NCBI GenBank assembly: GCA_964568735.1 | Contig: CAZMRF010000003.1 | Coordinates: forward strand, 36,454-100,453 | Length of the DNA: 64,000 nt | Source of the DNA: an uncultured Acidobacteriota bacterium | Lineage (GTDB): Bacteria > Acidobacteriota > Polarisedimenticolia > JACPZX01 | Direction of reading: 5' to 3' | Part shown: positions 2,313 through 40,233 of the stretch, piece after piece | Numbering within the stretch: position 1 is the stretch's first letter | How the letters are laid out: each line of letters opens with the position of its first letter | Made by a program: the position numbers and the translations under genes | Notes under the pieces: generated by a model | What the model was told of the DNA's origin: nothing | Database searches by the model: none | What the model saw: the letters and a program-made list of their open reading frames with translations, nothing else

Positions 2313-4481
2313 CTAGAACCCGAGCCGGAGCGTCGATGTGACGATGTCGTCCTGCAGCCGGGAGATGTCCGTTTCGCGGGTCAGCGCCTGGTAGGCGATC
2401 TCGAAATAGGAGCGGGGGTTGATGTTCCACCTCACGAAGGGGACGAACGACGTGTCGACCTCGTCCAGATCGGAGTACCTGGTCTCGTTGTAGGAAACGT
2501 TCACCTGGAGGGCTCCCCCTGGAAAGGGCGACCAGCTGCACGCGAAGGTGTCGACCGTGCGATCGGGCTCGCTCGTTCGCGCTTCAATGCGTCGGGAGCC
2601 GTACAAATATATTGCTGCGAGCGGACTGTAGGCAACGGCGGCCTCCGCGCTCCTGGTCCTGTCCTCGACGTTCGGGACGCCATCGGTGTAGATCGTCGCG
2701 TTCCGGTCGTCGTAGCGAAGGGTGACCGTCACGCTGCGGTAGGGAATCAGGGTGGCACCGGCGCCGACCAGCAGGGCTTCGTTGGTGGAGCCGTCTTCGA
2801 TCTCGCCGTACGATGTCCCCACGAGGAAGTTCAGATCCACGCCCTCGTAGACGAGGGCGGTCGTGTCGAAGTTCACCGCCCGGTTCTTCGTGGTGATCCC
2901 GTCGGTCTCGTTCGCGTAGCCGCTCAGGATCAGCGAGTGTCTCAAGGTCTCGAACGGGTTGGCCGTGACCGCCGCGGAGTAGACGTACGCCGTACGCTCG
3001 CGATCGCTGTCGAGCCCGTCCTCGCGGGCGACCCGGGCGCTCGCCCCCCAGACCCGGTCGAATTGGTGCCGGGCGGAGAGGCCGTTCGAGAGCGTCCAGC
3101 TCGTGGGGCTCTGCGTGGAGCTCACGAGCGAGTAGGTCGTCTCGTAATAGAGCCCCGGGCGCTCCAGGATCCGGAACCGGGAGCTGGCGTTCGCCAGGTT
3201 CCGCGTGTCGGAGACCGTCTCCTCGAACGTGTTCGTCGCCTGTGCGAGCAACGGCTCGAGCTCGGTGACGAGGATGGTGGGAAACGAGCTCGCGTTGGGC
3301 ACCGTCGGAGCCAGCGGGCTGACCACGACCTTCACGTATCGGGACATGACAGTGGCGAACCGCACCTCGAAGTTGTTGTCGAAGGGACCGAACGGCGCGG
3401 TGGGGATCACGGACGTCCTGGTCCAGAACTGCGCGTCGCTGCTCGTCCAGATCTCCCAGGTGAAGGTGCGGGCTATGTCGAAAGGGAGATTCCGATCGAT
3501 CCAGACGCGGAAGACGTTGACGTCGCGCATGACGCCCAGGTCGACGCCCATGTTCCGCGGGCGGTTGTCCCCGGCCGGGGGGATGAGACCCAGGTTGATC
3601 GAAGTCCCGACCAGCGTGTTGCCGTCCACGAGGAGAGGGGCCGGATTGAGGAGCCCCACGTCGGGCGTGTCGTCGAGCTCGAAGGAGCCGCCGACAGGGA
3701 AGACGGGAATGAGCAGCTCGCCGGTTCCCGACGACTCGATGTCGGTCTCCCGGTACGTGGTGTTCCAACTCCCCGAGATCTCCCAGCGGGAGTCGAAGTA
3801 GTTCTCTGAGAAGTACACCTGTCCGTTGTGAGTGGTCGTGTGGAACGTCGTTCCCTCGGCCTGATCCTCGATCCGTTCCAGTGATCCCCGGTAGTAGAGC
3901 CTCGTCGACTCGATGGGCCTGTACTCGGACGTGAGCCGCAGGGCGTCCTCGGTCCGATCCACGAGATCCTGGGAGCCGTCGCGATCGACGACATGGGAGG
4001 CCTCGAGGCGCATCGAGGGCAGCTCGACCGGATACCAGCCCAGGGTGCCGAGGAACGTGTCGCGAGTCAGGCGGAACTCGGCGAGGTCGTCGGTCTGCGA
4101 GGTCTCTTCGTTGCGATCCCAGCCGATGTCCCCGAGCACCAGGGGGGACCGGAGCGTGAGCCGCAGGAACGGCCGGAACCGCGTGAACTCCGACTCCTGC
4201 TCGAACCCGAGCTGCTCGATCGTGTCGTCGAAATGCTCGTAGAACATCCCCGCCTGGGCATGGAGGTAGGGGAAGAGCCGGCGGCTCCAGAGCAGATTCG
4301 CGCGGGGCCGCAGCGACGTCGTGTCCGTCTCGGTGTCCGGCAACCCGTCGATCTCGTTCCTGGAGGAGGAAGAGTTGCCCGACAGCTCCACGTAGCCGCT
4401 CAGGTCGTCTGCGAGGGCCTGGCTCGTCACGCCCGCCAGGATCGCTCCGGCGAGCGCGAGCCGGCCGGCGGAAGATCTCAA
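2313..4481 (-). CDS. Large outer-membrane beta-barrel protein (722 aa); possible MtrB/PioB-like porin
   Basis: Signal peptide (RSSAGRLALAGAILAGVTSQALA). Alternating amphipathic beta-strand character. C-terminal '...TLRLGF' with terminal Phe typical of OM beta-barrels. TTG start overlapping the YVTN stop (TTGA). Confidence 0.7.
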   Translation of the reverse strand: MRSSAGRLALAGAILAGVTSQALADDLSGYVELSGNSSSSRNEIDGLPDTETDTTSLRPRANLLWSRRLFPYLHAQAGMFYEHFDDTIEQLGFEQESEFTRFRPFLRLTLRSPLVLGDIGWDRNEETSQTDDLAEFRLTRDTFLGTLGWYPVELPSMRLEASHVVDRDGSQDLVDRTEDALRLTSEYRPIESTRLYYRGSLERIEDQAEGTTFHTTTHNGQVYFSENYFDSRWEISGSWNTTYRETDIESSGTGELLIPVFPVGGSFELDDTPDVGLLNPAPLLVDGNTLVGTSINLGLIPPAGDNRPRNMGVDLGVMRDVNVFRVWIDRNLPFDIARTFTWEIWTSSDAQFWTRTSVIPTAPFGPFDNNFEVRFATVMSRYVKVVVSPLAPTVPNASSFPTILVTELEPLLAQATNTFEETVSDTRNLANASSRFRILERPGLYYETTYSLVSSTQSPTSWTLSNGLSARHQFDRVWGASARVAREDGLDSDRERTAYVYSAAVTANPFETLRHSLILSGYANETDGITTKNRAVNFDTTALVYEGVDLNFLVGTSYGEIEDGSTNEALLVGAGATLIPYRSVTVTLRYDDRNATIYTDGVPNVEDRTRSAEAAVAYSPLAAIYLYGSRRIEARTSEPDRTVDTFACSWSPFPGGALQVNVSYNETRYSDLDEVDTSFVPFVRWNINPRSYFEIAYQALTRETDISRLQDDIVTSTLRLGF

Positions 4482-7623: not shown

Positions 7624-8571
7624 CTACGGAGCCGGCGCGATCGCGAAGACCGCGACGCCGCGGTTCCGTACCTGGGAGACGTAGAGCCTCCCGGCCGGGT
7701 CGAGCGCGAGGGCGCCCGGCCGCGCCAGCCACTCGCGGTGGGCGATGCGGCCCTCCTCGCGGAGGAAGCGGAACTCCCGATTGAAGACCATCACAACGCT
7801 GCGCTGGCGGTCGGAGAGGAAGATGTTGCCCTCGCCGTCGAGGGCCACGTCGCCGAGAACGCCGAAGGCGCCCGCTGCAGAGCCGGACTTCCCGAACGAG
7901 CGGACACCGCCTCCGGGCTCGATCGCGTGCACCCGGAACTGCTCGGGCACGGCGAAGACCACGGTGCCGTCGCTGCCGACGTCCAGCCCGCTGATCTCGG
8001 CGTTGGCCCGATCTTCTTCCGGGAGCGCAGCCAGCTCCGCCAGGTCGAGGAGCCGCTCGAGCGTGCCGTCGGGGAGGTAGCAGGCAGCGCGCATCTGGCC
8101 CTGGCTGACGAGCCAGATCCTTCCCGAACGGAGGAGAAGCCGGTTGGGGAGGAAACCCGCCGCGTCCCCCGACCGATCGAGGGCGATCTCGGCCGTCGGC
8201 CGCCCCCGGAAGTCGGCGCGGATCAGCGACCATTGCCTCGCGCCCTCCCCGGAGCCCGAGGCATACACCAGCATCAGGATGTCTCCGCTGCTCTCGATCC
8301 CGAGATCCGTCAGGCGCCCGTCCTCGACATCCACGTCGAAGCGGTAGATCTCCATGCCGGCGTTGTTGAATACCCTGATCTCGTTCCCGTAGACGGTGTA
8401 GACCTCGGATCGGAAAGCATCGACCACGACCCGCGCGTCGCTGTAAGGGATCCTTCCCGTGAAGTCGGCGAGATCGTAGAGGTAGGAGATCTCGGCGGGC
8501 CCGGCCATCGCCGGGGAGGAGAGCAGGACCGCCAGCGCCCCCACTCCTGCCAGCCTGCCCGCGAGGAGCAT
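7624..8571 (-). CDS. NHL-repeat beta-propeller protein, secreted
   Basis: Real start is the ATG at 8569-8571 (MLLAGRLAGVGALAVLLSSPAMA signal), adjacent to the stop of the upstream gene at 8574-8576. Repeated 'GxxxGxFxxPxGVAxD'-like NHL units (GDVALDGEGNIFLSD, ALALDPAGRLYVSQ). The 897-aa ORF 7624..10317 in the track is a read-through artefact in this frame. Confidence 0.75.
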   Translation of the reverse strand: MLLAGRLAGVGALAVLLSSPAMAGPAEISYLYDLADFTGRIPYSDARVVVDAFRSEVYTVYGNEIRVFNNAGMEIYRFDVDVEDGRLTDLGIESSGDILMLVYASGSGEGARQWSLIRADFRGRPTAEIALDRSGDAAGFLPNRLLLRSGRIWLVSQGQMRAACYLPDGTLERLLDLAELAALPEEDRANAEISGLDVGSDGTVVFAVPEQFRVHAIEPGGGVRSFGKSGSAAGAFGVLGDVALDGEGNIFLSDRQRSVVMVFNREFRFLREEGRIAHREWLARPGALALDPAGRLYVSQVRNRGVAVFAIAPAP

Positions 8572-8573
8572 GC

Positions 8574-9608
8574 TCAGATCTCCGCGACGTCCTTGAGGGG
8601 GACCTGGTGCAGGCCGTCCGATCGCCAGCTCTGGAGGACCCTCATGTAGTTCACGCGCTCGAAGGCCGCGGGGTCGGGGCAGGACTGGGTTCGCATGCTG
8701 CCGCGGGCCTGCTCCAGGGACTCGTACTCGTGCTCCTCGAGCCAGTCGGTCATCTCGCGGCGGATGCGGGCGAGGCGATCGGGGCCGTGCCTGAGGAGTG
8801 CCGAGACGACCTGGACGCCATGGGCTCCGGCCATCACGGCCTTGATGGCGTCGAGGCCCGTGTGGATGCCGCCGCTCGCTCCCAGCGAGGACCAGATCCG
8901 GCCCGAGAGGATCGCGAGCCAGCGCAGCCGCAGCAGCAGCTCGGAGGGGTCCGACAGGCGCAGCGTCGGGACCACCTCGAGCTGCTCGGGGTCGATGTCG
9001 GGCTGGTAGAAGCGGTTGAAGAGCACGAGCCCGTCGGCGCCCGCGTCCTCCAGCTCGGAGGCGAAGTGGGCGAGCGCGGAGAAGTAGGGAGAGAGCTTCA
9101 CGGCCACGGGTATCCGGACGCTCTTCTTGACGGCCCGGAGCATCTCGAGGATGCGCCGCTCGATCTTCTCGGCGCTCTCGCTCTCCTGCGTCGCCATGAA
9201 GTAGACGTTCAGCTCCAACGCGTCCGCTCCCGCCTGCTCGATGAGGTGCGCGTACCTGAGCCACCCTCCCAGCGTGGTGCCGTTGAGAGATCCGATGACG
9301 GGAATCGACACCGTCTCCTTGATCTTTCGGATCTGCGCGAGGTACTCCTCGGGTCCCAGCGTGAACTCGTCGGGATCGGGGAAGTAGCTCGTCGCCTCGG
9401 CGAAGGACTCGGCATGCTCCTCCATCGCGAAGAGCGTCCCGACCTCCTCGCGCTTGATCTGCTCCTCGAAGAGGGAGTGCATCACGATGGCCGCGGCGCC
9501 CGCGTCCTCCAGCCTCTTCACCGTGTCGAGGTCGTCCACGAGCGGTGAGGCTCCCGGCATCAGGGGGTGGGGAAGCCTGAGCTTCAGATAGGTCGTCGAC
9601 AGGTCCAT
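8574..9608 (-). CDS. Dihydroorotate dehydrogenase-like (class 1 DHOD/DPD family) TIM-barrel flavoprotein
   Basis: 344 aa. Motifs 'IPVIGSLNG', 'VAVKLSPY', 'GADGLVLFNR', 'GASGGIHTGLDAIKAVMAGAHGVQVVSAL' typical of the DHOD/dihydropyrimidine dehydrogenase family. 12 nt downstream of the PFOR stop. Confidence 0.8.
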   Translation of the reverse strand: MDLSTTYLKLRLPHPLMPGASPLVDDLDTVKRLEDAGAAAIVMHSLFEEQIKREEVGTLFAMEEHAESFAEATSYFPDPDEFTLGPEEYLAQIRKIKETVSIPVIGSLNGTTLGGWLRYAHLIEQAGADALELNVYFMATQESESAEKIERRILEMLRAVKKSVRIPVAVKLSPYFSALAHFASELEDAGADGLVLFNRFYQPDIDPEQLEVVPTLRLSDPSELLLRLRWLAILSGRIWSSLGASGGIHTGLDAIKAVMAGAHGVQVVSALLRHGPDRLARIRREMTDWLEEHEYESLEQARGSMRTQSCPDPAAFERVNYMRVLQSWRSDGLHQVPLKDVAEI

Positions 9609-9620
9609 GGTCTCCCTCCC

Positions 9621-13250
<3,630 letters not shown>

Positions 13251-13690
13251 GCGTTCTCCTCGCGGGGCCGGGAGCCTGTCCGGGTCGTGGCAGCGACCCG
13301 ACAAGCCGAGGCTTGGAAGTCGAGGCCGGGAGTGAAAAGTGGATGACCCCGGGTGCGGTCCGGCGCCCGCATACGAAACAGCAAGCTGGGTGCCACGCAG
13401 GTGCCGGGCCGAACCCGCGTATCCACCGAGGTTGGAGCGCCTCAGTGGACCCCGGCAAGCCGTCCCATCCGTGCAATCCCGCAGGTGCGCGATTTCACGC
13501 AGGCCATCCCCGCCGCCCCGAGCGCCGGCCAGGATGCCTGGCCGTGCTTGCAGGCGTAACCGAGATCGCGGATAGAGATGATCGAGTGAGGTACGGCAGC
13601 CAAGGCCGCTCATGAAACCGCCGCTGCAGGCGCACCTCGAATATCGGACAGCGTCAGCGGGCCGCATGTGGAGGGAGGAGGAGGGGTTTC

Positions 13691-13865
13691 GTCAGTCAGC
13701 CGTGCGGGGCTGGAGGCCGTACGTGAAGGCGGCCACGTGGGCGACCTCTTCGTCGGTGAGGATGTCCGTCTGGTAGAAGGGCATCGGGTCCTTCCCCGCG
13801 CGGATCAGGTCGGCGATCTCCCCGGGGGTCATCTTGGAAGCGATGAGATCAGGGCCCAGGCCGGC
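13691..13865 (-). pseudogene. Degenerate 3' fragment (about 58 codons) of a diheme cytochrome c gene; copy 1 of the direct repeat flanking the AbiE cassette
   Basis: Minus-strand translation ...GAGLGPDLIASKMTPGEIADLIRAGKDPMPFYQTDILTDEEVAHVAAFTYGLQPRTAD* parallels the C-terminus of the intact cytochrome at 15819..16709 (...GLGSDLTVSAMTPGEIADLIRAGKDPMPFYQTDILTDEEVAHVAAFTYGLQPHPAN*). Core 13711-13833 has 3 mismatches in about 123 nt against 15838-15960; flanks diverge. Confidence 0.6.
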
Positions 13866-13925
13866 GCCGACGTGGTCGTGTGGTAGGCGTTGAATCCCCG
13901 CGCCCTCAACAACAGGTCGAAGGGA

Positions 13926-14837
13926 TCAGCCGGTACGTCCACGATCGAATCGGTTGCGAACGTCCGTTCGTAGCCGCTCGGCAAGGGGCTCGTTCCAGCC
14001 TGAGCTTGAGTCCTCGATCACCTGCAGCTCGAGCGCGCTGAGATCACGCAGAGAGGCGAATCGAGTCTCCACGGAGGCCAGGATCTCGTCAGGTCGAACC
14101 TCTTCGGAGATCCGAATGAGACGCCGCAGATCCTCCCACTCGTAGTCGCCACTGCGGAGCTTAGAGAGAAACGCTTCGGGGTCGAATGGGTCGCGTACCT
14201 GCCAGAGCTTGAGGACGACCAGGGAGCGGAGCAGGTCGCTGTCGAACGGGGTCGTCGCGAAGCGGTGGAGGTCATACAGGTCGCGGACCTTGGCCCGTTG
14301 GAAAGCCGCCCGCACCTTCTCGGCGATCATTTCGATGGCCTCCAGCGACCGAATCTCGAAGATGTCGAACTCGAGGTGAGGAAAATAGGGTTGGTGCTCC
14401 ATCGTCCTCATCACGACTGGCAGCGTGGGGTGCTCGCGAAGGCTGACTTGCAGGCGGAAACGGCCCGCCTCGTTCCACGCATGCCGGTAAAGCACGTCCC
14501 TGCCGAAGGAAGTATCGTCCTCGGTCTTATAGTAGTCGGTGAGGGTGAACGCTATGTCATGGTGCACCCGATTGAAAACCTCGACGATCTGGACGAGTAC
14601 GTCGTCGTCCTTCTGTTCTGTCGCGAGTGTGAAGTCGAGATCTTCAGAGAAGCGTCCCGCTGAGCCGAAGATCAGTTTACGCAGGCACGTCCCCCCCTTG
14701 AATGCGAGGTATTCCATGACTCCCGAGTCGACCATGGCGCGGAGCGCGTAGGTCAGAACAACGTCCCGCTCTGCGACGAGTTTGTCGCGCAGGCCGCTGT
14801 TGCGTGCATAGAGGTCTACGTACTTGTCAGCAATCAT
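13926..14837 (-). CDS. abiEii: AbiEii/AbiGii-family nucleotidyltransferase toxin (type IV TA)
   Basis: Start at ATG 14835-14837 (MIADKYVDLYARNSGLRDK...), overlapping the antitoxin stop. Conserved 'AFKGGTCL' nucleotidyltransferase motif. About 303 aa. The track ORF extends 42 codons further upstream into the antitoxin. Confidence 0.8.
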   Translation of the reverse strand: MIADKYVDLYARNSGLRDKLVAERDVVLTYALRAMVDSGVMEYLAFKGGTCLRKLIFGSAGRFSEDLDFTLATEQKDDDVLVQIVEVFNRVHHDIAFTLTDYYKTEDDTSFGRDVLYRHAWNEAGRFRLQVSLREHPTLPVVMRTMEHQPYFPHLEFDIFEIRSLEAIEMIAEKVRAAFQRAKVRDLYDLHRFATTPFDSDLLRSLVVLKLWQVRDPFDPEAFLSKLRSGDYEWEDLRRLIRISEEVRPDEILASVETRFASLRDLSALELQVIEDSSSGWNEPLAERLRTDVRNRFDRGRTG

Positions 14838-15712
14838 CGGCGGCGTGGCTTGCCGGGGAAGACCACGCGGCGGCGGGGCTTCTCCTCTTTCGGGAGCAGC
14901 ACGCCTCTTGGGACGTTCTCCACGACGTTCCACGGTCGCACCAGGTTTCCCGTCGTGCCCCATTTGCGGCGGGAGCCGAGCTGGATCTTGCTCTGAGGGC
15001 GGACGAGCGCGAGCAGGGCCGAGCGGAAGTTTTCAGGCACCTCGGCCCGATGGAGATCGAGGAAGTAGCCCAGCCGCTGCGCGAGTGCGGAGGCTCCCCA
15101 TCTGCGCGTGAGATCGATGAGTCCATCCCACGAGATGCGGGGGGTGGCGCGCGCCACAATCCGGGAGGTCTCACCGAGGCCCCCTGCGTATCGGGGCCGA
15201 TCGATTGCGTCGAGCAAGGCCCGCTCCAGGGTTGCCATCTGGACCGGATGCCCCAGGACATTGCTCTTCCCGAATCCGAAGAAGCGGCGCCTCGGGACGT
15301 ATACGAAGACATAGCGGCGCCCCTGGATGGGTTCCGGGCGCCGCCGCTCCTGGCAGGCGACGTAGATCTCGGCAAACGTCTGCTCGGTGAGGCCGTGATG
15401 AGTGCAGGCGGTGCCGAACGAGAAGAAGTAGGGACTGACGATCAGCGCCGCCGCGGCAAGGGGGTTCGTGTCGGCTACTCCTTCCCGGCCGCGGTCGGCG
15501 GGCACGAGCTGGTAGAGCCCGGCCCGCAAGCGCTCGAACCAGCCTTTCTTCACGAGCCGATGAGCCATGCTCCGGGCGTAGCTCTCCGACGCTCCGAGGG
15601 ACTTGCTCAGCTCGGTAAGAGTGATGGTCTTCTGCCCCCGCCACTCCAGGTCGAGAACAATTTTGGCTTCGTTCCTGGAGAGGGTCCGCTCGATGGTTGC
15701 TGATTTAGCCAT
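14834..15712 (-). CDS. abiEi: AbiEi-family antitoxin/transcriptional regulator (DUF4095-type wHTH N-domain)
   Basis: About 292 aa from ATG 15710-15712 (MAKSATIERTLSRNEAKIVLDLEW...); alternative TTG at 15733. 4-bp overlap with the toxin start; the antitoxin-then-toxin order is typical of AbiE. Confidence 0.75.
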   Translation of the reverse strand: MAKSATIERTLSRNEAKIVLDLEWRGQKTITLTELSKSLGASESYARSMAHRLVKKGWFERLRAGLYQLVPADRGREGVADTNPLAAAALIVSPYFFSFGTACTHHGLTEQTFAEIYVACQERRRPEPIQGRRYVFVYVPRRRFFGFGKSNVLGHPVQMATLERALLDAIDRPRYAGGLGETSRIVARATPRISWDGLIDLTRRWGASALAQRLGYFLDLHRAEVPENFRSALLALVRPQSKIQLGSRRKWGTTGNLVRPWNVVENVPRGVLLPKEEKPRRRVVFPGKPRRR

Positions 15713-15813
15713 TTGTTTTGATTTTACTAACAAATAGCAAATCCTGCAACCTGGCGGAAACGCCCTCGAATCACCTTCTGGAATGGCCTCCAGTGTAAAA
15801 GGATGGGGGGAGG

Positions 15814-15960
15814 GTCAGTCAGTTCGCTGGGTGGGGCTGGAGGCCGTAGGTGAAGGCAGCCACGTGCGCGACCTCTTCGTCGGTGAGGATGTCCGTCTGG
15901 TAGAAGGGCATCGGGTCCTTCCCCGCGCGGATCAGGTCGGCGATCTCCCCGGGGGTCATC
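15814..15960. repeat. Copy 2 of the about 145-bp direct repeat (3' end of the intact diheme cytochrome gene)
   Basis: Near-identical to 13691-13833 (95-nt perfectly identical core). Confidence 0.7.
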
Positions 15961-16709
15961 GCGGAGACCGTGAGGTCGGAACCGAGGCCGGTGCCGCCGC
16001 CAGGGTGGCATCCCGCGCAGGCGCGATGGAAGAGTTCGCGTCCCTGCTCCGGATCTCCCGAGCTCGTCTCGACGCGCCCCGGAGGAGAGCGGCGGATGAC
16101 GAAGGGGGAGGCGTAGGGTGCGGCGAGGCTCATCATGTACTCGACCAGCCTCGTCCGCATCAGCCCGGTCATCTCGGTTCCGCCCATGAAGCGCTTCAGG
16201 CAGACCTCTCCCGCCTCGCCGCTGTCGGTCATGATCCGGCCGTTCCACCAGTTCCCGCGGCCTGCGGCGTCGTAGACGGTGTGGCCGGTCCGGATCAGGT
16301 CGTCCGGAGGGGAAGCGCCCGGTGGCGTGACCAGGTGGCAGTCGGCACAGGCGATCCGCGTGGGGGTCTCGTCGCGGCTGAAGAAGATCGCCTCCCCGCG
16401 GCTGTCCACCTTCGAGCCGGGATCGTGACGTGGAGGCCGGGGCCGCGGCGTCGCCATCTCCGGCCGCTGCGCTTCCTCAGAGGCGGCTCCCGTCTCGGAG
16501 ACTCTGACCGGCGGGTCGGTGCCGGGCGACGGTTCGGTGGAATCCTCGGTAGGAGTCTCACCTGCCAGCATAGATGCCGGGCTTCCGACAGGGCGCATCG
16601 CCCCGGGGGCGCTGAGCAGCACAGCGAGAACGCCCAGGGCGGAGACGAACAGGGTGCGTCCCGCGCGTCGATTCGCGTGCCGGCCGGGTGAGCGTGGGGT
16701 GCCGAACAC
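15819..16709 (-). CDS. Diheme c-type cytochrome, secreted
   Basis: Two CxxCH motifs (CADCH, CAGCH). Probable GTG start at 16707-16709 (VFGTPRSPGRHANRRAGRTLFVSALGVLAVLLSAPGA signal-like region) with a GGAG 8 nt upstream; the track ORF extends to 16904. C-terminus duplicated at 13691-13865. Confidence 0.65.
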   Translation of the reverse strand: MFGTPRSPGRHANRRAGRTLFVSALGVLAVLLSAPGAMRPVGSPASMLAGETPTEDSTEPSPGTDPPVRVSETGAASEEAQRPEMATPRPRPPRHDPGSKVDSRGEAIFFSRDETPTRIACADCHLVTPPGASPPDDLIRTGHTVYDAAGRGNWWNGRIMTDSGEAGEVCLKRFMGGTEMTGLMRTRLVEYMMSLAAPYASPFVIRRSPPGRVETSSGDPEQGRELFHRACAGCHPGGGTGLGSDLTVSAMTPGEIADLIRAGKDPMPFYQTDILTDEEVAHVAAFTYGLQPHPAN

Positions 16710-16840
16710 TTGTGAGTCTCCGTTTCCAGGGTACGTGACTGCTGCCTGCCACGTTCGACGTGGCCATCGCCTGCAGAGTCTCTCTTCCGGGAGGAGGGCC
16801 CTGGTGGCGACCCCCGCAATGTAGAAACTGCCGTGCCGGC

Positions 16841-18808
16841 ATGCCACCATGGCCGCCCCCGAACACCGACCTGGAGGTCGCAGCTTTGCACACGCCCGCA
16901 TCACCGACGGTCCGCTCCTCCCGGGCGCTTCTGGGCGCCCTCGCCCTTCTCGCGCCCCTCCTCGCCTGTCAGCCAGCCGGGAATACGAAAGAGAGCGAAG
17001 CGTCCGCCGCGGCCCGTGACATCCACTCCCTGAGCCGGCCGGATCGGGTCCGAACCACCCACGCCGTCCTCGACTGGACCGTCGACTTCAACGCCGAGCA
17101 GATCCGGGGCGGCGTGACTTGGACCTTCGAGCGCGCCCCCGGTGCCTCGGAGGATCCGCTCATCCTCGATACGCGCGGGCTGACGATCGAGGCGGTGAAG
17201 TCGGAGTCGGGGCAGCCGCTCGAGTGGACTCTTGCCCAGCCGGATCCGGTGCTCGGCAGGGCGCTGTCGATCCAGGCCGTGCCGGGCGAGACGAAGGTCG
17301 TCATCACCTACAGAACCGGCCCCGACTCAGATGCCCTGCAATGGCTGAAGCCCGCCCAGACCGCGGGCAAGGAGAAGCCATTCCTCTTCTCGCAGGCTCA
17401 GGCGATCCTGGCCCGCACGATGCTGCCCTGCCAGGACTCGCCGGGCGTGAGGATCACCTACGAGGCGGCCGTGAAGACGCCCTCCGGGATCCGCGCCGTC
17501 ATGGCCGCGGAGCAGCTCGGCGGGGGAGGCGAGGAGCCCTGGCGCTTCACGATGTCCCAGCCCATCCCGAGCTATCTCATCGCCATCGCCGCCGGCGACA
17601 TCGACTTCCGTCCCCTCGGCCCTCGCTCAGGAGTCTTCGCCGAGCCGTCGGTCGTCGAGAAGGCCGCCTGGGAGTTCGCCGACACCGAGGCGATGATCGA
17701 GGCGAACGAGAAGCTCTTCGGCCCCTACCGATGGGATCGCTACGATCTGATCGTCCTGCCTCCGAGCTTCCCCTTCGGCGGGATGGAGAACCCCCGCCTC
17801 ACCTTCGCCACGCCCACGGTCCTCGCAGGAGACCGCTCGCTCGTCGCGCTCATCGCCCACGAGCTGGCCCACTCCTGGTCGGGCAACCTGGTCACGAACG
17901 CCACCTGGGCGGACTTCTGGCTCAACGAAGGCCTCACGGTCTACCTGGAGAACCGGATCCTCGAATCTCTCTACGGCCGCGAGCGCTCGGAGATGGAGGC
18001 CGTCCTGGGCCGGCACGATCTCGAGGAAGCGCTCGAAGAGATGGAGCCAGGCGACCAGGTCCTGCACAACACCTCGCTCGGGGGGCGCGATCCCGGCGAC
18101 GCGGAAACCATGGCTTCCTACGAGAAGGGCTACCTGTTCCTGAGACTCCTCGACGAGGAGTTCGGCCGCGCGACCTTCGATCCCTTCTTGAGGAAGTGGT
18201 TCGACGACAATGCCTTCCAGAGCAGAACGACGGCCGACTTCGAGGCGGCGATGGATCGGGATCTCTTCAAGGGAGACGCGGCGCGGAAGGAGAGGCTCGA
18301 GGTGAAGAAGTGGCTCTACGCTCCGGGGCTCCCGCAGAACGCTCCGCAGGCCGTGAGTGATGCCTTCGACCGGGCCGCGGCCGAGGCGGCGGCTTTCGCG
18401 GGCGGAACGCGCGCCGCCTCCGCGATCCCGGCCGGCGAGTGGACCATCTTCGAATGGCGCCACTTCCTCAGGACCCTTCCCGACGATCTCCCCGCGGAGA
18501 AGATGGCGGAGCTGGACTCGGCCTGGTCTCTCTCCGCCACGGGCAACTCGGAGATCCTCATGGAGTGGCTCCTCCAGTCGATCCGCAGCGGCTACGAGAA
18601 ATCCTACCCCGCGCTTGTCGATTTCCTGATGCGGCAGGGGCGTCGCAAATTCCTCGAGCCCCTCTACAAGGAGATGGCGAAGAGCGAGGAGGGAATGACG
18701 CGCGCCCTCGAGATCTACGCCGAGGCCCGCCCGACCTACCACTCCATGGCCACGAACGCGGTCGACGAGATCCTCGGGTACGGGCGGAGAGCCGCCGCCA
18801 CGCCTTGA
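16841..18808 (+). CDS. M1-family zinc metallopeptidase (leukotriene A4 hydrolase/aminopeptidase-like), secreted lipoprotein
   Basis: HELAHSWSGNLVT...WLNEG (HExxH-x18-E zinc site). N-terminal lipoprotein signal '...LLAPLLACQP'. ATG at 16841 (MPPWPPPN...). Confidence 0.85.
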   Translation: MPPWPPPNTDLEVAALHTPASPTVRSSRALLGALALLAPLLACQPAGNTKESEASAAARDIHSLSRPDRVRTTHAVLDWTVDFNAEQIRGGVTWTFERAPGASEDPLILDTRGLTIEAVKSESGQPLEWTLAQPDPVLGRALSIQAVPGETKVVITYRTGPDSDALQWLKPAQTAGKEKPFLFSQAQAILARTMLPCQDSPGVRITYEAAVKTPSGIRAVMAAEQLGGGGEEPWRFTMSQPIPSYLIAIAAGDIDFRPLGPRSGVFAEPSVVEKAAWEFADTEAMIEANEKLFGPYRWDRYDLIVLPPSFPFGGMENPRLTFATPTVLAGDRSLVALIAHELAHSWSGNLVTNATWADFWLNEGLTVYLENRILESLYGRERSEMEAVLGRHDLEEALEEMEPGDQVLHNTSLGGRDPGDAETMASYEKGYLFLRLLDEEFGRATFDPFLRKWFDDNAFQSRTTADFEAAMDRDLFKGDAARKERLEVKKWLYAPGLPQNAPQAVSDAFDRAAAEAAAFAGGTRAASAIPAGEWTIFEWRHFLRTLPDDLPAEKMAELDSAWSLSATGNSEILMEWLLQSIRSGYEKSYPALVDFLMRQGRRKFLEPLYKEMAKSEEGMTRALEIYAEARPTYHSMATNAVDEILGYGRRAAATP

Positions 18809-18848
18809 GGCTGCCTCGGAGTTCACCCGGGGCCGGCCTGCGTGCCGG

Positions 18849-20936
18849 CTATCCCCCCGCCTTCTCCCGGTGTGAGTCCCAGTAGAGCCCCGCCGCCAGG
18901 AGGAGGAAGGCCATCAGGCCGAGCCAGTTCCCCCAGACTGAGAGGAAACCGCCCAGCCCCAGGGCCCCGATCCCCGTCAGGTCGGGGACGATGGAGACCC
19001 TCCACGAGTCCTCGATGAATCGCAGCAGCGCCGCAAGGACGCCGACGAGCGCGCCGCCGGCGATGAAGCCCGAGGCGATGAGCGTGCCCTTCTCGTGCCG
19101 TGCCTTGCCGAGGATGTTGTCCTTCGAGGAGTGCTCCAGGAAGTGCGCCACCACCGCCCCGAGGACCAGGGGTGAGTTCAGCTCCATGGGGAGATACATC
19201 CCGAGGGCGAAGGCCAGCCCCGACACCTTGCACAGCTCGGCTGATACCGCGAAGACGGCGCCGATGGCATAGAGGAACCACGGCGCGCCGCCGGTTCCCA
19301 TGACGCCGCGGAGAACGGCCGCCATCGCGTTCGGCTGCGGCGCCGGCAGCGCGTTGGGGTGGGCGGCGTCGGCCGAGAAGCCGTAGACGTGCGCCATCAG
19401 GAGGATGACCAGCGTCGTTCCGGCGGAGGCCGTGATCGCCCCGACGATGTTGGAGATCTCGACCTGGCGCGGCGTCGCCCCGAGCCAGTAGGAGATCTTG
19501 TACTGCGTGACGAGCGACCCGCTCATGGAGAGGGCCGTGCAGACGACGCCCCCGATCAGGAGGACCTGGAGCATCCCGCCATCGCCGCTGAGACCCATCG
19601 CTGAGAGTAAAACCGCCGTCACGATGAGGGTCGTGATGGTCATCCCGGAGACGGGGGTTATGGAGATCATGGCGATGGCCCAGGCCGAGACCGACGCGAA
19701 GAGGAAGGCGATGACCAGGGTCATCACCGCGGAGACCAGCGCGATGGTCGTGGCGTTCGCCTCTCCGGCGAGAACCGAGAAGCGGAAGTAGAGGAAGATC
19801 ACGGCACCCGTGGCGAGGATCCCTCCGATGCTCACCGACATGGGCAGGGAGCGTTCGGTGCGGACGTCCTGCGCCAGGGCGCTCTCTCCACGGATGAGCC
19901 GGGCCACCTCGCCGAAGGCCTGGCGCGTCGCCTGCACGATGATGGGCGACATCTTGATGATCGACAGCAGGCCGGCGCAGAAGATCCCGCCGATGCCGAT
20001 CGGCCTCACGTACTGCGCGAAGATCTGCGCCGGCGCGAGCTGCGAGAGGGGCTGGGCCCCGTCCGAGATCGCGCCGGGGATGAACTGCCCGAGGTGCGCG
20101 AAGAGAGGCACCAGCACGAAGAAGGAGACCATGGAGCCCGCGAAGATGATGCAGGCGTACTTCAGCCCCATGATGTAGCCGAGGCCCAGGACGGCGGCCG
20201 AGGTGTTCATCGTGAAGACGGCCTTGTACTTGCTCGTGAAGCCGGCCAGGGCGGAGATGCTCGCGGTGGAGAAGACGTCGGCCCAGGCGCGCATGGAGGA
20301 GCTGAGGAAGTCGAACATGGCCGCGATGACCGCCGAGTAGGTCAGGACCACCGCGCTCTGGCCCCCGCGCTTTCCGGCGACGAGGATCTCGGTCGTCGCG
20401 CGCGCCTCGGGGTAGGGGAGCTTGCCGTGGAGGTCGCGCACGAAGTAGCGGCGGAACGGGGAGAGGATGAAGACGCCGAGGATCGCGCCGAGGAGCGGCA
20501 CGAGGAAGATCTGGAAGAGCGACGATCGGCCCTGCAGCCCGAGGATGTAAATCGCGGGCATGGTGAAGACGGAGCCCCCGGCGATGATCCCCGACGTGGC
20601 TCCGATGGCGAGGACGTTCACGTTCTCCAAGAGGGTCGAGGAGCGCGAGCGGAGGAACTTGACGGCGAGGACCGAGAAGCCGACGGCGAGGATCGAGATC
20701 GGGATCGCCGACTCGATCCCCTGGCCGAGCTTCAGGGCGATGTAGGTGGCCGCCGCCGAAAACACGATCGACCAGAAGAACCCCTGGACGATCGACCTGA
20801 GAGTGACCTCGGGAGGCGCCTGGTCGGGGCGGACGACGGGCTGGTAGGTCTCGCCCGGCTTCAGCTCGCGGAAGGCGGTTTCCGGAAGCCGCACATCCTC
20901 CAGATCAGGGGCCGTGCCGGTGTCTCCGGGCTTCAT
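18849..20936 (-). CDS. OPT-family oligopeptide transporter (integral membrane, about 16 TMs)
   Basis: 695 aa from ATG 20934-20936 (MKPGDTGTAPDLEDV...). Highly hydrophobic with the OPT-family architecture. The track ORF begins 45 codons upstream with no support. Confidence 0.85.
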   Translation of the reverse strand: MKPGDTGTAPDLEDVRLPETAFRELKPGETYQPVVRPDQAPPEVTLRSIVQGFFWSIVFSAAATYIALKLGQGIESAIPISILAVGFSVLAVKFLRSRSSTLLENVNVLAIGATSGIIAGGSVFTMPAIYILGLQGRSSLFQIFLVPLLGAILGVFILSPFRRYFVRDLHGKLPYPEARATTEILVAGKRGGQSAVVLTYSAVIAAMFDFLSSSMRAWADVFSTASISALAGFTSKYKAVFTMNTSAAVLGLGYIMGLKYACIIFAGSMVSFFVLVPLFAHLGQFIPGAISDGAQPLSQLAPAQIFAQYVRPIGIGGIFCAGLLSIIKMSPIIVQATRQAFGEVARLIRGESALAQDVRTERSLPMSVSIGGILATGAVIFLYFRFSVLAGEANATTIALVSAVMTLVIAFLFASVSAWAIAMISITPVSGMTITTLIVTAVLLSAMGLSGDGGMLQVLLIGGVVCTALSMSGSLVTQYKISYWLGATPRQVEISNIVGAITASAGTTLVILLMAHVYGFSADAAHPNALPAPQPNAMAAVLRGVMGTGGAPWFLYAIGAVFAVSAELCKVSGLAFALGMYLPMELNSPLVLGAVVAHFLEHSSKDNILGKARHEKGTLIASGFIAGGALVGVLAALLRFIEDSWRVSIVPDLTGIGALGLGGFLSVWGNWLGLMAFLLLAAGLYWDSHREKAGG

Positions 20937-20982
20937 GGGCACGCTCCTCCCTCCCTCATCGGAAGCCTCCTCCCCGTGCCGA

Positions 20983-22782
20983 TCAGGACGCGGAAGGCGC
21001 CTGATCCGGGTACTTGGCGATGATCGATTCGACGACCCGGCGCGACAGGCTGTGGTACGAGCGGCCCGCAACCTCGAAGATCTGCCGCGCGAGGTCCCGC
21101 GTTCGTGGATGCTTCCCCAGCGCCGTGTAGAGCGGCCTGATGTATTTCATCCGGCCGACGCGCGTCAGCACTTCCCGGATGCGCGGGAAGACCGGCTCGT
21201 AGTCCGAGGCGGCCGCGATCGTCAGCCACTCGACCAGGATCTCGTAGTTGCCCCGGCCCGTGAGCGACAGGTTCGCGTCGAGCCACTCGCAGGAGGCGCG
21301 GTCCACCGGCCTCTGGAGGCGTTGCAGGTAGATGAGGGTCTCGCTGGGGCTCCAGCCTGCAATCTGGCTCTTCGATGGCCGCGCCCCCGAGGGCCAACCC
21401 TCGGCCAGGTGCGTCAGGTCTTCCAGTGACTTCGACTGGAAGACCGGCGCGTTGGAGGGCATGCCCGGCTCGTGGAGCCACCGGCGGACCTCGGCCTGAG
21501 CCGACACACCGGGGATCTCGGCATCCAGGAAGGCGAGCCACTCCTCGGACGTGATGGAGGTGAAGCGGAAGCGGGCGATGTAGCGGCGCATGAAGCGGTC
21601 GAAGCGCTCGCGGCCGGCCGTCCTCTCGACCAGCGCCAGGAGCCGCGAGCCCTTCTCGTAGGGAATCGACGAGAAAGCGTCGTCCGGGTCCACTCCCTTC
21701 AGCTCCGTGCGGAGCCGCGTGAGGGGCGAGTCGGCGCCGAAGCGCTCCATCTCGCTGTCGAGGGCCTTCTGCCCGATGGCCCAGGAGAGCACCGCGGCCT
21801 CCGGGCCGTGCAGCGCCTCCTGTATCCGCCTCTCGGCCCAGACGGTCGACCCCTCGTTGAGCCAGAAGTGATCCATCGTGGCGTTGGTCACGATGTTGCC
21901 CGTCCAGGAGTGGGCCAGCTCGTGGGCGACCACGTCCACGAGCGACCGGTCACCCGCCAGGAGCGTCGGCGTCAGGAAGGTCATCCGGGGGTTCTCCATT
22001 CCGCCGTAGGGGAAGGACGGCGGGAGGACCAGCATGTCGAAGCGGTCCCACTCGTAGGGGCCGAAGAGGGCCTCCGCCTTGACGATCATCTCCTCGATGC
22101 CGGAGAACTCCCAGGCGGCGGCATCGACCGTCTCCGGCTCGGCCCAGACCCGCGAGCGCTTGCTGAGGTCCTTCGAGCGCAGGTTCCCGACCGCCAGCGC
22201 CACCAGGTACGAGGGGATCGCCTGCGGCATCTCGAAGAGAAAGGTGCTGGTCCCGGCCTTCGGCCCGGGCCGCTTCCCCGCCGGGCCCGCAGACATCACG
22301 GCCGCCAGCGGCTCCGGCACCGTGACCTCGGCCTGGTACGTCACGCGGACGGCCGGCGAGTCCTGGATGGGCACCATCGTCCGCGCGTGTATCGCCTGGC
22401 ACTGGCTGAAGAGGAAGGGATGCTTCTTCCCCTCGGTCTGTGCGGGGGTCAGCCACTGCAGAGCCACGGCCTCCGGGGAGGTCGTGTAGTCGAGGACCAC
22501 GGCGTCGGTGCTGGCCGGCAGGTGCAGCCTCAAACGGCGCCCGAAGATCGGCTCTTCGTCGCCGAGCTCGTGCGGCACCTCGGCGCCCGCTTTCGTCCGG
22601 ACGGATCGGATCGTCAATCCCTTGGTATCGAGATCCATCGTGCCGGCCGAAGGGGCGGCTAGATCGAGAACTGCGCGACCCTCCAGGACCCGCCGCTCGA
22701 AGTCCACGTCGAGCGTCAGGCGCAGGTGCTTCGTCCGGGGTTGATCCGTGTCGAAGTACGAGTGGGGGTCGAGGCAGGCCAT
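20983..22782 (-). CDS. M1-family aminopeptidase (LTA4H-like), cytosolic paralog of 16841..18808
   Basis: 599 aa, no signal peptide. HELAHSWTGNIVT...WLNEG zinc motif. Shares blocks 'LQWLTPAQTEGKKHPFLFSQCQAIHARTMVPIQDSP' with the secreted paralog. Confidence 0.85.
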   Translation of the reverse strand: MACLDPHSYFDTDQPRTKHLRLTLDVDFERRVLEGRAVLDLAAPSAGTMDLDTKGLTIRSVRTKAGAEVPHELGDEEPIFGRRLRLHLPASTDAVVLDYTTSPEAVALQWLTPAQTEGKKHPFLFSQCQAIHARTMVPIQDSPAVRVTYQAEVTVPEPLAAVMSAGPAGKRPGPKAGTSTFLFEMPQAIPSYLVALAVGNLRSKDLSKRSRVWAEPETVDAAAWEFSGIEEMIVKAEALFGPYEWDRFDMLVLPPSFPYGGMENPRMTFLTPTLLAGDRSLVDVVAHELAHSWTGNIVTNATMDHFWLNEGSTVWAERRIQEALHGPEAAVLSWAIGQKALDSEMERFGADSPLTRLRTELKGVDPDDAFSSIPYEKGSRLLALVERTAGRERFDRFMRRYIARFRFTSITSEEWLAFLDAEIPGVSAQAEVRRWLHEPGMPSNAPVFQSKSLEDLTHLAEGWPSGARPSKSQIAGWSPSETLIYLQRLQRPVDRASCEWLDANLSLTGRGNYEILVEWLTIAAASDYEPVFPRIREVLTRVGRMKYIRPLYTALGKHPRTRDLARQIFEVAGRSYHSLSRRVVESIIAKYPDQAPSAS

Positions 22783-22897
22783 GCTGTGATCCTCCCGGTC
22801 TCGGGCGTCGCGGGCGGGAGCGCGTCCTTTGTATCATCTGGCAGGGTCGGCGGTCCATCTCAGCAGGGGACACCTGGAGGATTTACAGGTCGGTGTG

Positions 22898-27208: not shown

Positions 27209-40111
<12,903 letters not shown>

Positions 40112-40206
40112 GTGCGGGACCTCCATGGCCGGTCGCTGAGCCCAGGCGCGAGTGCGAGGCATCGCTCCCGTTGTGGGCCCGGCATGCGGAGCGTGGTGCA
40201 AGCCGG

Positions 40207-40233
40207 ATTGTACGACCAAATGAATGCGCTCAA
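40207..40233 (-). promoter_or_regulatory. Weak candidate sigma70 promoter for the giant gene (-35 TTGAGC, 15-nt spacer, -10 TACAAT)
   Basis: Minus-strand 'TTGAGCgcattcatttggtcgTACAATcc' in an AT-richer stretch about 100 nt upstream of ATG 40111. Spacer is short. Confidence 0.2.

Follow-up and report, generated by a model that had tools for sequence, protein, structure and literature searches.

AbiE systems belong to the type IV class of toxin-antitoxin (TA) pairs and, like their MenAT relatives in M. tuberculosis, are encoded antitoxin first as overlapping bicistrons, the AbiEi antitoxin joining a winged helix-turn-helix (wHTH) to a C-terminal domain. The MenT relatives of the AbiEii toxin modify tRNA acceptor stems. 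AbiEii is a DUF1814 nucleotidyltransferase (NTase) with four motifs (I, hG[GS]; II, DhD with an Arg; III, K...R; IV, +DxxD), all of which were found by mutagenesis in S. agalactiae to be required for GTP binding and toxicity, and the AbiEi of that species binds 23-bp inverted repeats (PMC3985639). In C-terminal displacement, described for effector-immunity arrays of Rhs, contact-dependent inhibition (CDI) and type VI secretion system (T6SS) genes, a module comes to lie right after a conserved gene, with a displaced copy of the 3′ end of that gene downstream and one illegitimate junction at a microhomology (PMC5361080). The minimal mobile elements of Neisseria are, by a definition cited in PMC3082526, cassettes whose exchange relies on homologous recombination within the conserved genes that flank them. 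Conversion between a gene and its pseudogene leaves a sharp tract of identity between diverged flanks, a switch of tree topology, and a pseudogene without private changes inside the tract. Here we describe an AbiE operon that has on either side a direct copy of the last part of a diheme cytochrome c gene, in a 64-kb stretch of DNA from an uncultured Acidobacteriota bacterium (contig CAZMRF010000003.1; the whole stretch is referred to as the window, and locus coordinates are positions within it). We consider that the locus is best explained by an old illegitimate insertion of AbiE DNA with a duplicated cytochrome end, which was retained and later underwent gene conversion, and we put the probability of this whole explanation at roughly two in three.

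The operon resembles the described AbiE systems in its overlapping, antitoxin-first gene order, its wHTH AbiEi with a C-terminal domain, its DUF1814 NTase motifs I-IV and an inverted repeat with 23-nt arms at the promoter and start (PMC3985639). It differs from the described systems in that the pair is only 70-77% identical to its nearest database relatives, is chromosomal, and has apparently been retained vertically for a long time. As in C-terminal displacement (PMC5361080), the module stands right after a conserved gene, a displaced 3′ copy lies downstream, and one junction is an illegitimate one at a microhomology. Here, however, the module is a TA/defence pair, the conserved gene encodes a housekeeping cytochrome rather than a polymorphic toxin, the event is single rather than part of an array, a 52-nt filler comes from a neighbouring gene, and an intragenomic origin by template switching or tandem duplication would be equally possible. 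When the locus was examined for homology-facilitated illegitimate recombination, the short GC-rich microhomology junction was present, and the anchor would be the cytochrome gene. A recombinase-free cassette between conserved genes is shared with the Neisseria minimal mobile elements, but the relatives of our locus have either the ancestral ABC genes, a deletion of these, or decayed remains of AbiE, and none has an alternative cassette; moreover, unlike the window locus, the Neisseria elements are not known to duplicate the end of a flanking gene. All of the features listed above for gene-pseudogene conversion are seen here, and a tract of 93-128 nt at a spacing of 2.1 kb is typical for intrachromosomal gene conversion.

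On the minus strand, the order of genes is diheme cytochrome c, abiEi, abiEii, a piece of an ABC-2 permease gene, the orphan copy of the cytochrome 3′ end, ~440 nt of non-coding DNA and a nifJ-like pyruvate:ferredoxin oxidoreductase (PFOR) gene. The direct repeat (13667-13872 and 15794-15999) is 206 nt long with 85% identity and an offset of 2127; a gapped alignment pairs 13677-13872 with 15806-15999 (196 nt). The functional copy (15794-15999, minus strand) consists of the last 60 codons and stop of the cytochrome gene and ~25 nt past the stop. The orphan copy (13667-13872, minus strand), as established by alignments and site patterns, is in frame, ends at a stop in the homologous position (13692-13694) and reads …HDHVGAGLGPDLIASKMTPGEIADL…LQPRTAD before it, and its flanks share SK and QPR..D with other cytochrome orthologues. 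The longest exact run is 93 nt (13741-13833 in the orphan, 15868-15960 in the gene), and a 50-nt probe from this core occurs exactly twice in the window, with a match in 0/100 shuffles. The original prediction had correctly seen two direct cytochrome 3′ copies bracketing an abiEi/abiEii pair, in a compositionally atypical segment that holds nothing else; its dimensions needed correction, as the identical core is 93 rather than 95 nt and the repeat covers ~181 coding nt plus 13-25 nt beyond the stop codon rather than ~145 bp. Its description of the fragment as degenerate and abutting the abiEii stop did not survive as such, since the copy is not randomly decayed (frame and stop are retained) and 10 nt plus the 52-nt ABC-2 piece intervene. 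Three features had escaped it: this piece, a remnant of the ABC ATPase gene next to the orphan copy, and an abiEi remnant in a sister lineage. Within the fragment, a 46-codon open reading frame (ORF; 13692-13832, minus strand) has a start Met that is at the same time the codon opening the exact core. This ORF, which gene calling on the NCBI contig reported and which groups with the cytochrome protein in clustering, almost certainly belongs to a pseudogene.

The age of the insertion can be judged from the closest relative, L004 (NCBI GCA_973521125.1; labels of this form denote relative loci). Its cytochrome and that of the window are 87% identical where they align best locally and 77% identical when 274 aligned codons are compared, its M1 peptidase is 86.5% identical, and divergence at fourfold sites is 0.31-0.32. 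AbiE genes are absent from L004, but its cytochrome gene is immediately followed by 112 nt (L004 10964-11075) that are 84% identical to window 15750-15639, which comprises the candidate abiEi operator, the start region and the initial 24 codons of the gene, and this remnant abuts native DNA upstream of an intact ABC ATPase gene. Its ATG start is now ACG, residues 5-24 are identical to those of the window AbiEi, and all eight coding differences are synonymous. The divergence of the remnant equals that of the flanking genes. As no AbiEii closer than 77% to that of the window was found among 5.8 billion proteins, an independent acquisition at the same site in L004 is implausible. These observations suggest that the common ancestor already had the cassette, that purifying selection acted on it during most of the subsequent period, and that L004 lost it recently. 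The loss probably took the form of a ~2-kb microhomology deletion, and the remnant, where AT-to-GC differences outnumber the reverse (12 versus 4), now appears to be drifting toward the GC content of its host. The comparison with related genomes thus went partly against the original prediction, in that a diverged abiEi remnant occupies the same site, although no intact cassette is present there.

The second line of evidence comes from site patterns among the functional copy, the orphan and L004. In the 32-nt 5′ flank, the functional copy and L004 agree against the orphan at eight sites (orphan-private changes), the orphan and L004 agree against the functional copy at four, and the two window copies never agree against L004, giving distances of 4 (functional copy to L004), 8 (orphan to L004) and 12 (between the copies). 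The 93-nt core is the reverse, with counts of zero, zero and nine, and in the next 35 nt they are zero, three and three. The tree therefore switches from grouping the functional copy with L004 in the flank to grouping it with the orphan in the core (0/12 versus 9/0; Fisher test by hand, ~3e-6). The orphan has no private substitutions over 13706-13833, that is, 0 in 128 nt compared with 8 in the 32 nt of 5′ flank. A non-functional fragment as old as the split from L004 would be expected to carry ~15-20% private changes, or ~14-19 in 93 nt, where none was observed. When 31 mismatches were placed at random, a 93-nt identical run arose in 0/200,000 trials; the core differs from L004 at 9/93 sites and is thus conserved, not invariant. 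Since the cassette is older than the L004 split and the orphan has no changes of its own in the core, the core cannot be the footprint of the original crossover, as had been proposed; it probably represents a recent gene-conversion tract running from the functional gene to the orphan. On the simplest reading, a conversion of at least 128 nt into the orphan would have been followed, possibly, by a second, shorter tract. The flank distances and outgroup polarisation, based on few sites, fit a donor origin and a neutral orphan after in-genome duplication alike.

The third line of evidence concerns the junction beside abiEii. Searches with the cytochrome protein against genome contigs and metagenome contigs each returned one distant match (31-32%) of no use for synteny; the informative relatives came instead from a protein-database search, in which cytochrome orthologues ranged from 48 to 87% identity. 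In L009 (cytochrome 56% identical) the full order is cytochrome c, ABC_tran, ABC2 and PFOR; in L006/L007 (68%) and L027 (73%) an ABC ATPase gene directly follows the cytochrome, and in L008 the ABC genes have been lost. The AbiE cassette was absent from the cytochrome orthologue loci examined in relatives. The ancestral order thus appears to have been cytochrome c, ABC ATPase, ABC-2 permease, PFOR and a dihydroorotate (DHO)-dehydrogenase-like gene. Ten nucleotides after the abiEii stop lies a 52-nt internal fragment of the ABC-2 permease gene (13864-13915, minus strand), corresponding to codons 167-183 of the sister gene (blastn 47/52 to L004 12718-12769, E 3.7e-13; also found by tblastn to three ABC-2 orthologues), followed by the orphan cytochrome fragment. 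The two are joined through a microhomology, CGTCGGCGC (13864-13872, minus strand), which was delimited by the overlap of both local alignments and reads in both parental genes; the shared CG(T/G)CGGCGC amounts to 8-9 nt. Such a junction, between genes that were ancestrally 2 kb apart in this locus, is a mark of illegitimate recombination, and the delivery was accordingly not the purely homologous event that had been envisaged. Downstream of the orphan fragment, 13515-13660 (minus strand) consists of native intergenic DNA and ~31 codons from the start of the ABC ATPase gene (blastn to L004 11113-11221, 78%; tblastn to residues 1-43 of the L004 ATPase), the ATPase remnant itself occupying 13515-13603. 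The motif TGCGTGAAATCGCGCAC, also found upstream of PFOR in L008 and L009, stands directly after this remnant (13485-13501), which implies that a later deletion removed the remaining ATPase gene and the intact ABC-2 permease gene.

We propose that acquired AbiE DNA would have been inserted ~25 nt past the cytochrome stop in an ancestral cytochrome-ABC-PFOR locus. The right-hand junction would have been illegitimate, with 52 nt of the ABC-2 gene of the locus joined through the microhomology of 8-9 nt to a point in the cytochrome gene immediately beyond the second haem motif, leaving the 206-nt direct duplication of the cytochrome 3′ end, and no site-specific recombinase would have been involved. 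The insertion would predate the split from L004, with purifying selection on the operon in both lineages; subsequently, a recent deletion in the sister would have left the promoter and 24 codons of abiEi, and a further deletion in the window lineage would have taken the ABC genes. Three routes give this same product, and the data do not separate them. A single template-switching insertion mediated by microhomology could have copied the cytochrome to +25 nt past its stop, then foreign AbiE DNA, 52 nt of ABC-2, and the cytochrome again from just after the second CXXCH; this would be one event, accounting for both the short filler and the short duplication. Alternatively, homology-facilitated illegitimate recombination, or C-terminal displacement (a concept set out in PMC5361080), may have involved DNA of a close relative whose ABC operon had already been partly replaced by AbiE, which would be nearest to the idea first put forward for this locus. 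Finally, a 2-kb tandem duplication could have existed transiently and received the insertion in one of its copies. Common to all three are the lack of a recombinase, one illegitimate junction, non-AbiE DNA that comes from this locus or from a close relative, and an event that predates the L004 split.

Several points weigh against the explanation we favor. No part of the gene is more conserved than the core, whose identity is somewhat inflated by this, and the apparent direction of conversion depends on very few sites. The presence of the orphan fragment in the common ancestor is supported by eight private changes in 32 nt, as the L004 deletion covers the place where it would have been. The order and number of events (one complex or two) are not separable by the data, and what we say of AbiE function is drawn from homology. 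In addition, the Logan and JGI contigs that overlap the locus both end inside the orphan core (the Logan contig exactly 30 nt into it), and the link from that core to PFOR is thus seen only in the assembly of the window.

Of the other explanations, the one closest to the original prediction is a strict recent delivery, in which a foreign donor recombined homologously within a conserved stretch of its cytochrome gene, so that the core would mark the crossover and the diverged flanks would represent donor and recipient. We regard this as unlikely, although some features of the locus would suit it: no recombinase lies in or near the cassette and its GC content is lower, the orphan flanks resemble a real orthologue (frame, stop, SK and QPR..D) rather than random decay, and incoming modules have been proposed to displace gene 3′ ends at T6SS and Rhs loci (PMC5361080). 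The event nevertheless appears to be old, given that L004 retains at this site an abiEi remnant of vertical descent with the divergence of the flanking genes and only synonymous coding changes, and an identity of 93-128 nt in a non-functional copy cannot date from an old event. Furthermore, the illegitimate junction uses the ABC-2 gene of the locus itself, 90% identical to that of the sister, so that any donor would be a close relative and not a foreign lineage; a close-relative donor in the original event, through homology-facilitated illegitimate recombination or C-terminal displacement, is possible. The low GC content was borne out as a trend but not in magnitude: 13873-15818 has 62.0% GC compared with 68.0% for the window (not 58 versus 70%), with 59.9% in abiEii and 65.9% in abiEi, and the cassette is the lowest 2 kb in the 64 kb, 3.4 standard deviations under the mean. 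We considered low GC as a constant trait of this AbiE subfamily and rejected the idea, as its other cassettes have 62-67% GC and range from 3.6 points below to 2.7 above their flanks.

A more mobile interpretation of the repeat was given little credence. The 206-nt repeat, its center kept identical by gene conversion, could serve as a standing substrate for RecA-mediated excision, and the resulting 2.1-kb circle, which may carry the cytochrome 3′ end, AbiE and the ABC-2 piece, could re-enter relatives by a single crossover in the cytochrome segment. If true, a defence or addiction cassette would here be able to move among the members of a clade without a recombinase, by hitch-hiking on homology, and its loss would be penalized by the TA function. 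A chimeric cytochrome with the …PRTAD C-terminus, as would mark an empty site, was not found among the members of the 90% cluster, which consists only of the window gene, its JGI copy and the 46-aa orphan ORF.

It is very improbable that the cassette is a small integrative element mobilized in trans by a tyrosine or serine integrase, with the core as its att site and a replacement 3′ end of the kind seen at tRNA genes. The duplicated 3′ end, the identical core and the restored target gene do formally have the layout of attL and attR. However, there is no integrase in the element or among its neighbors (PFOR, cytochrome and M1 peptidase), the ORF list and Pfam searches having revealed no integrase or transposase between PFOR and the M1 peptidase. 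A scan of the whole window found neither tRNA genes nor Rfam families, and hence there is no integration target of the tRNA type. The ABC-2 piece lies inside the supposed element, beside the presumed attR, homologous AbiE pairs at the four other loci scanned lack such repeats, L004 lost its cassette by an internal microhomology deletion and not by att x att excision, and the topology switch in the core is as expected of gene conversion. The earlier view that this is not a classical mobile element, has no recombinase of its own and rides beside a conserved gene is upheld.

An assembly artefact, in which a repeat was collapsed or mis-threaded and a separate molecule or strain variant stitched in, could draw on the contig ends in the orphan core but is scarcely credible, as the JGI contig follows the same path as the window (M1 peptidase, cytochrome, core of the functional copy, cassette, ABC-2 piece and fragment flank; 99.95% identical over 13765-17863), the end of the Logan contig fits a break of 31-mer assembly at a true repeat (this k being our assumption), the sister genome independently shows AbiE DNA right after its cytochrome gene, and a circle of 2.1 kb that lacks genes for replication would be unable to persist. 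The Logan contig, 100% identical over 13804-15549, reproduces the path from abiEii to the 5′ flank of the fragment, and three assemblies thus agree on the cassette-to-fragment junctions.

The locus holds an intact AbiEi/AbiEii type IV TA or abortive-infection operon, and the order first described (abiEi, then abiEii on the same strand with a 4-nt ATGA overlap) is supported by Pfam and PADLOC. The antitoxin and autorepressor gene abiEi (14834-15712, minus strand) is full length and encodes 292 aa with an N-terminal wHTH and a C-terminal AbiEi domain; it matches Pfam AbiEi_4 (PF13338, 1.9e-07) over the cut-off and the PADLOC AbiEi model (2.3e-50, covering residues 18-273), while AbiEi_1 (PF09407, 2.8e-04) falls slightly under its cut-off (score 21.6 versus 22.2). 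The protein is 70-74% identical, end to end, to the partners of homologous AbiEii proteins. The toxin gene abiEii (13926-14837, minus strand), also full length, encodes a 303-aa DUF1814 NTase (Pfam AbiEii, PF08843, 1.5e-29; PADLOC 2.3e-64), in which the motifs FKGG (I, G48-G49), R62…D66-L-D68 (II), K174…R181 (III) and R185-D-L-Y-D189 (IV) are invariant in the alignment of homologues. The cytochrome-abiEi intergenic region is 106 nt long with 48% GC, and a repeat search identified there an imperfect inverted repeat over the abiEi start codon (15695-15751), with 23-nt arms (15695-15717 and 15729-15751) that are 78% complementary and separated by an 11-nt spacer. Its sequence is conserved in the L004 remnant, and it is a candidate AbiEi operator. 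A scan of 13200-16100 for sigma-70 promoters found nothing, and the two terminator-like matches in the same region, both within abiEii, equal the number expected from shuffles. By analogy with described systems, AbiEi would repress its own promoter through the inverted repeat and neutralize AbiEii; once freed, AbiEii, as a GTP-binding DUF1814 NTase, would stop growth, resulting in abortive infection or addiction.

The AbiE system is an ordinary member of its family and represents no new family or mechanism. The subfamily search gave more than 5,000 matches, the top ones 70-77% identical, and the sources of some AbiEii matches are labelled Gemmatimonadales, Acidobacteriota or Myxococcales. Homologous AbiE pairs sit among TA and defence genes, beside integrase genes, or beside genes for a heavy-metal ATPase and HTH_17 proteins. 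As these are unrelated accessory contexts in other phyla, the pair must have been horizontally acquired at some point, which agrees with what was first suggested. At the four homologous AbiE loci scanned, which represent three contexts, no flanking repeats of the 3′ end of a neighboring gene were found. One of the four, L010 (Gemmatimonadales metagenome-assembled genome DASWIX010000027.1), has dispersed direct repeats of 52-79 nt (…GCGCGAAGCGCGCTCAGCCGCGGCTTCAGCCGCGGAACAAC) at 3500-3884 and 8107-8603, which bracket small genes on the same strand: a HicB-like gene, two hypotheticals, AbiEi/AbiEii 73-74% identical to those of the window, and Uma2. Dispersed repeats of this type (71-79 nt) are unrelated to the 3′ ends of neighboring genes, and the layout looks like a cassette array of the integron type or one bounded by repetitive extragenic palindromes (REP).

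The processes involved here (illegitimate insertion, deletion and gene conversion) are all well known. The locus is of use mainly as a worked example: when a defence cassette is bracketed by an identical core and diverged flanks, its delivery need not have been recent, and the signature here appears to combine an old illegitimate insertion with a young gene-conversion tract superimposed on it. What decided the matter was the 52-nt filler from a neighboring gene together with the decayed abiEi DNA that a sister genome retains. In addition, the locus appears to show how, in an uncultured lineage of high GC content, a chromosomal AbiE system was long retained vertically under purifying selection and then lost in one branch, which bears on the stability of single defence or TA modules outside defence islands.

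The diheme cytochrome c gene (15819-16709, minus strand) is intact, with two CXXCH motifs (Pfam Cytochrome_CBB3, 3.3e-15); its start at 16709 was taken from the 296-aa product called on the NCBI contig, the cluster member being 296 aa long. The PFOR gene (9621-13250, minus strand) was assigned by Pfam, and its product is 70% identical to the PFOR of L009. In a more general form, TGCG(T/C)(G/C)AAATCGCGCA, the motif upstream of PFOR lies ~235-250 nt before the PFOR start in the window (13485-13501), in L008 (~4070-4090) and in L009 (~12575-12595). These three lineages differ in what precedes the motif, and it is a candidate regulator-binding site for PFOR.

Further observations were made elsewhere in the window. 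A second, diverged M1-peptidase-like sequence (21600-22500) lies on the opposite strand ~4 kb from the M1 peptidase gene (16810-18810), with 67-69% nucleotide identity, and is a paralogue or an old inverted duplication. The minus strand of 27209-40219 contains a single ORF of 4336 codons with Pfam matches to a CIS tube protein (N-terminal), RHS repeats, DUF6531 and VgrG/Phage_base_V (C-terminal), as well as eight MopE-type metal-binding motifs; this region may comprise several fused or contiguous genes of a contractile-injection or Rhs toxin locus. The genes for MacB and a D12 methyltransferase, between which this ORF lies in the window, are direct neighbors in L004, where ~13 kb is thus absent. 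Synteny with L004 also breaks away from the AbiE site, at 18849-22890 (L004 5810-7937), with an OPT-type transporter ORF and other DNA in the window and AAA_14/DUF4143 and a hypothetical gene in L004. The neighborhood is generally indel-prone.

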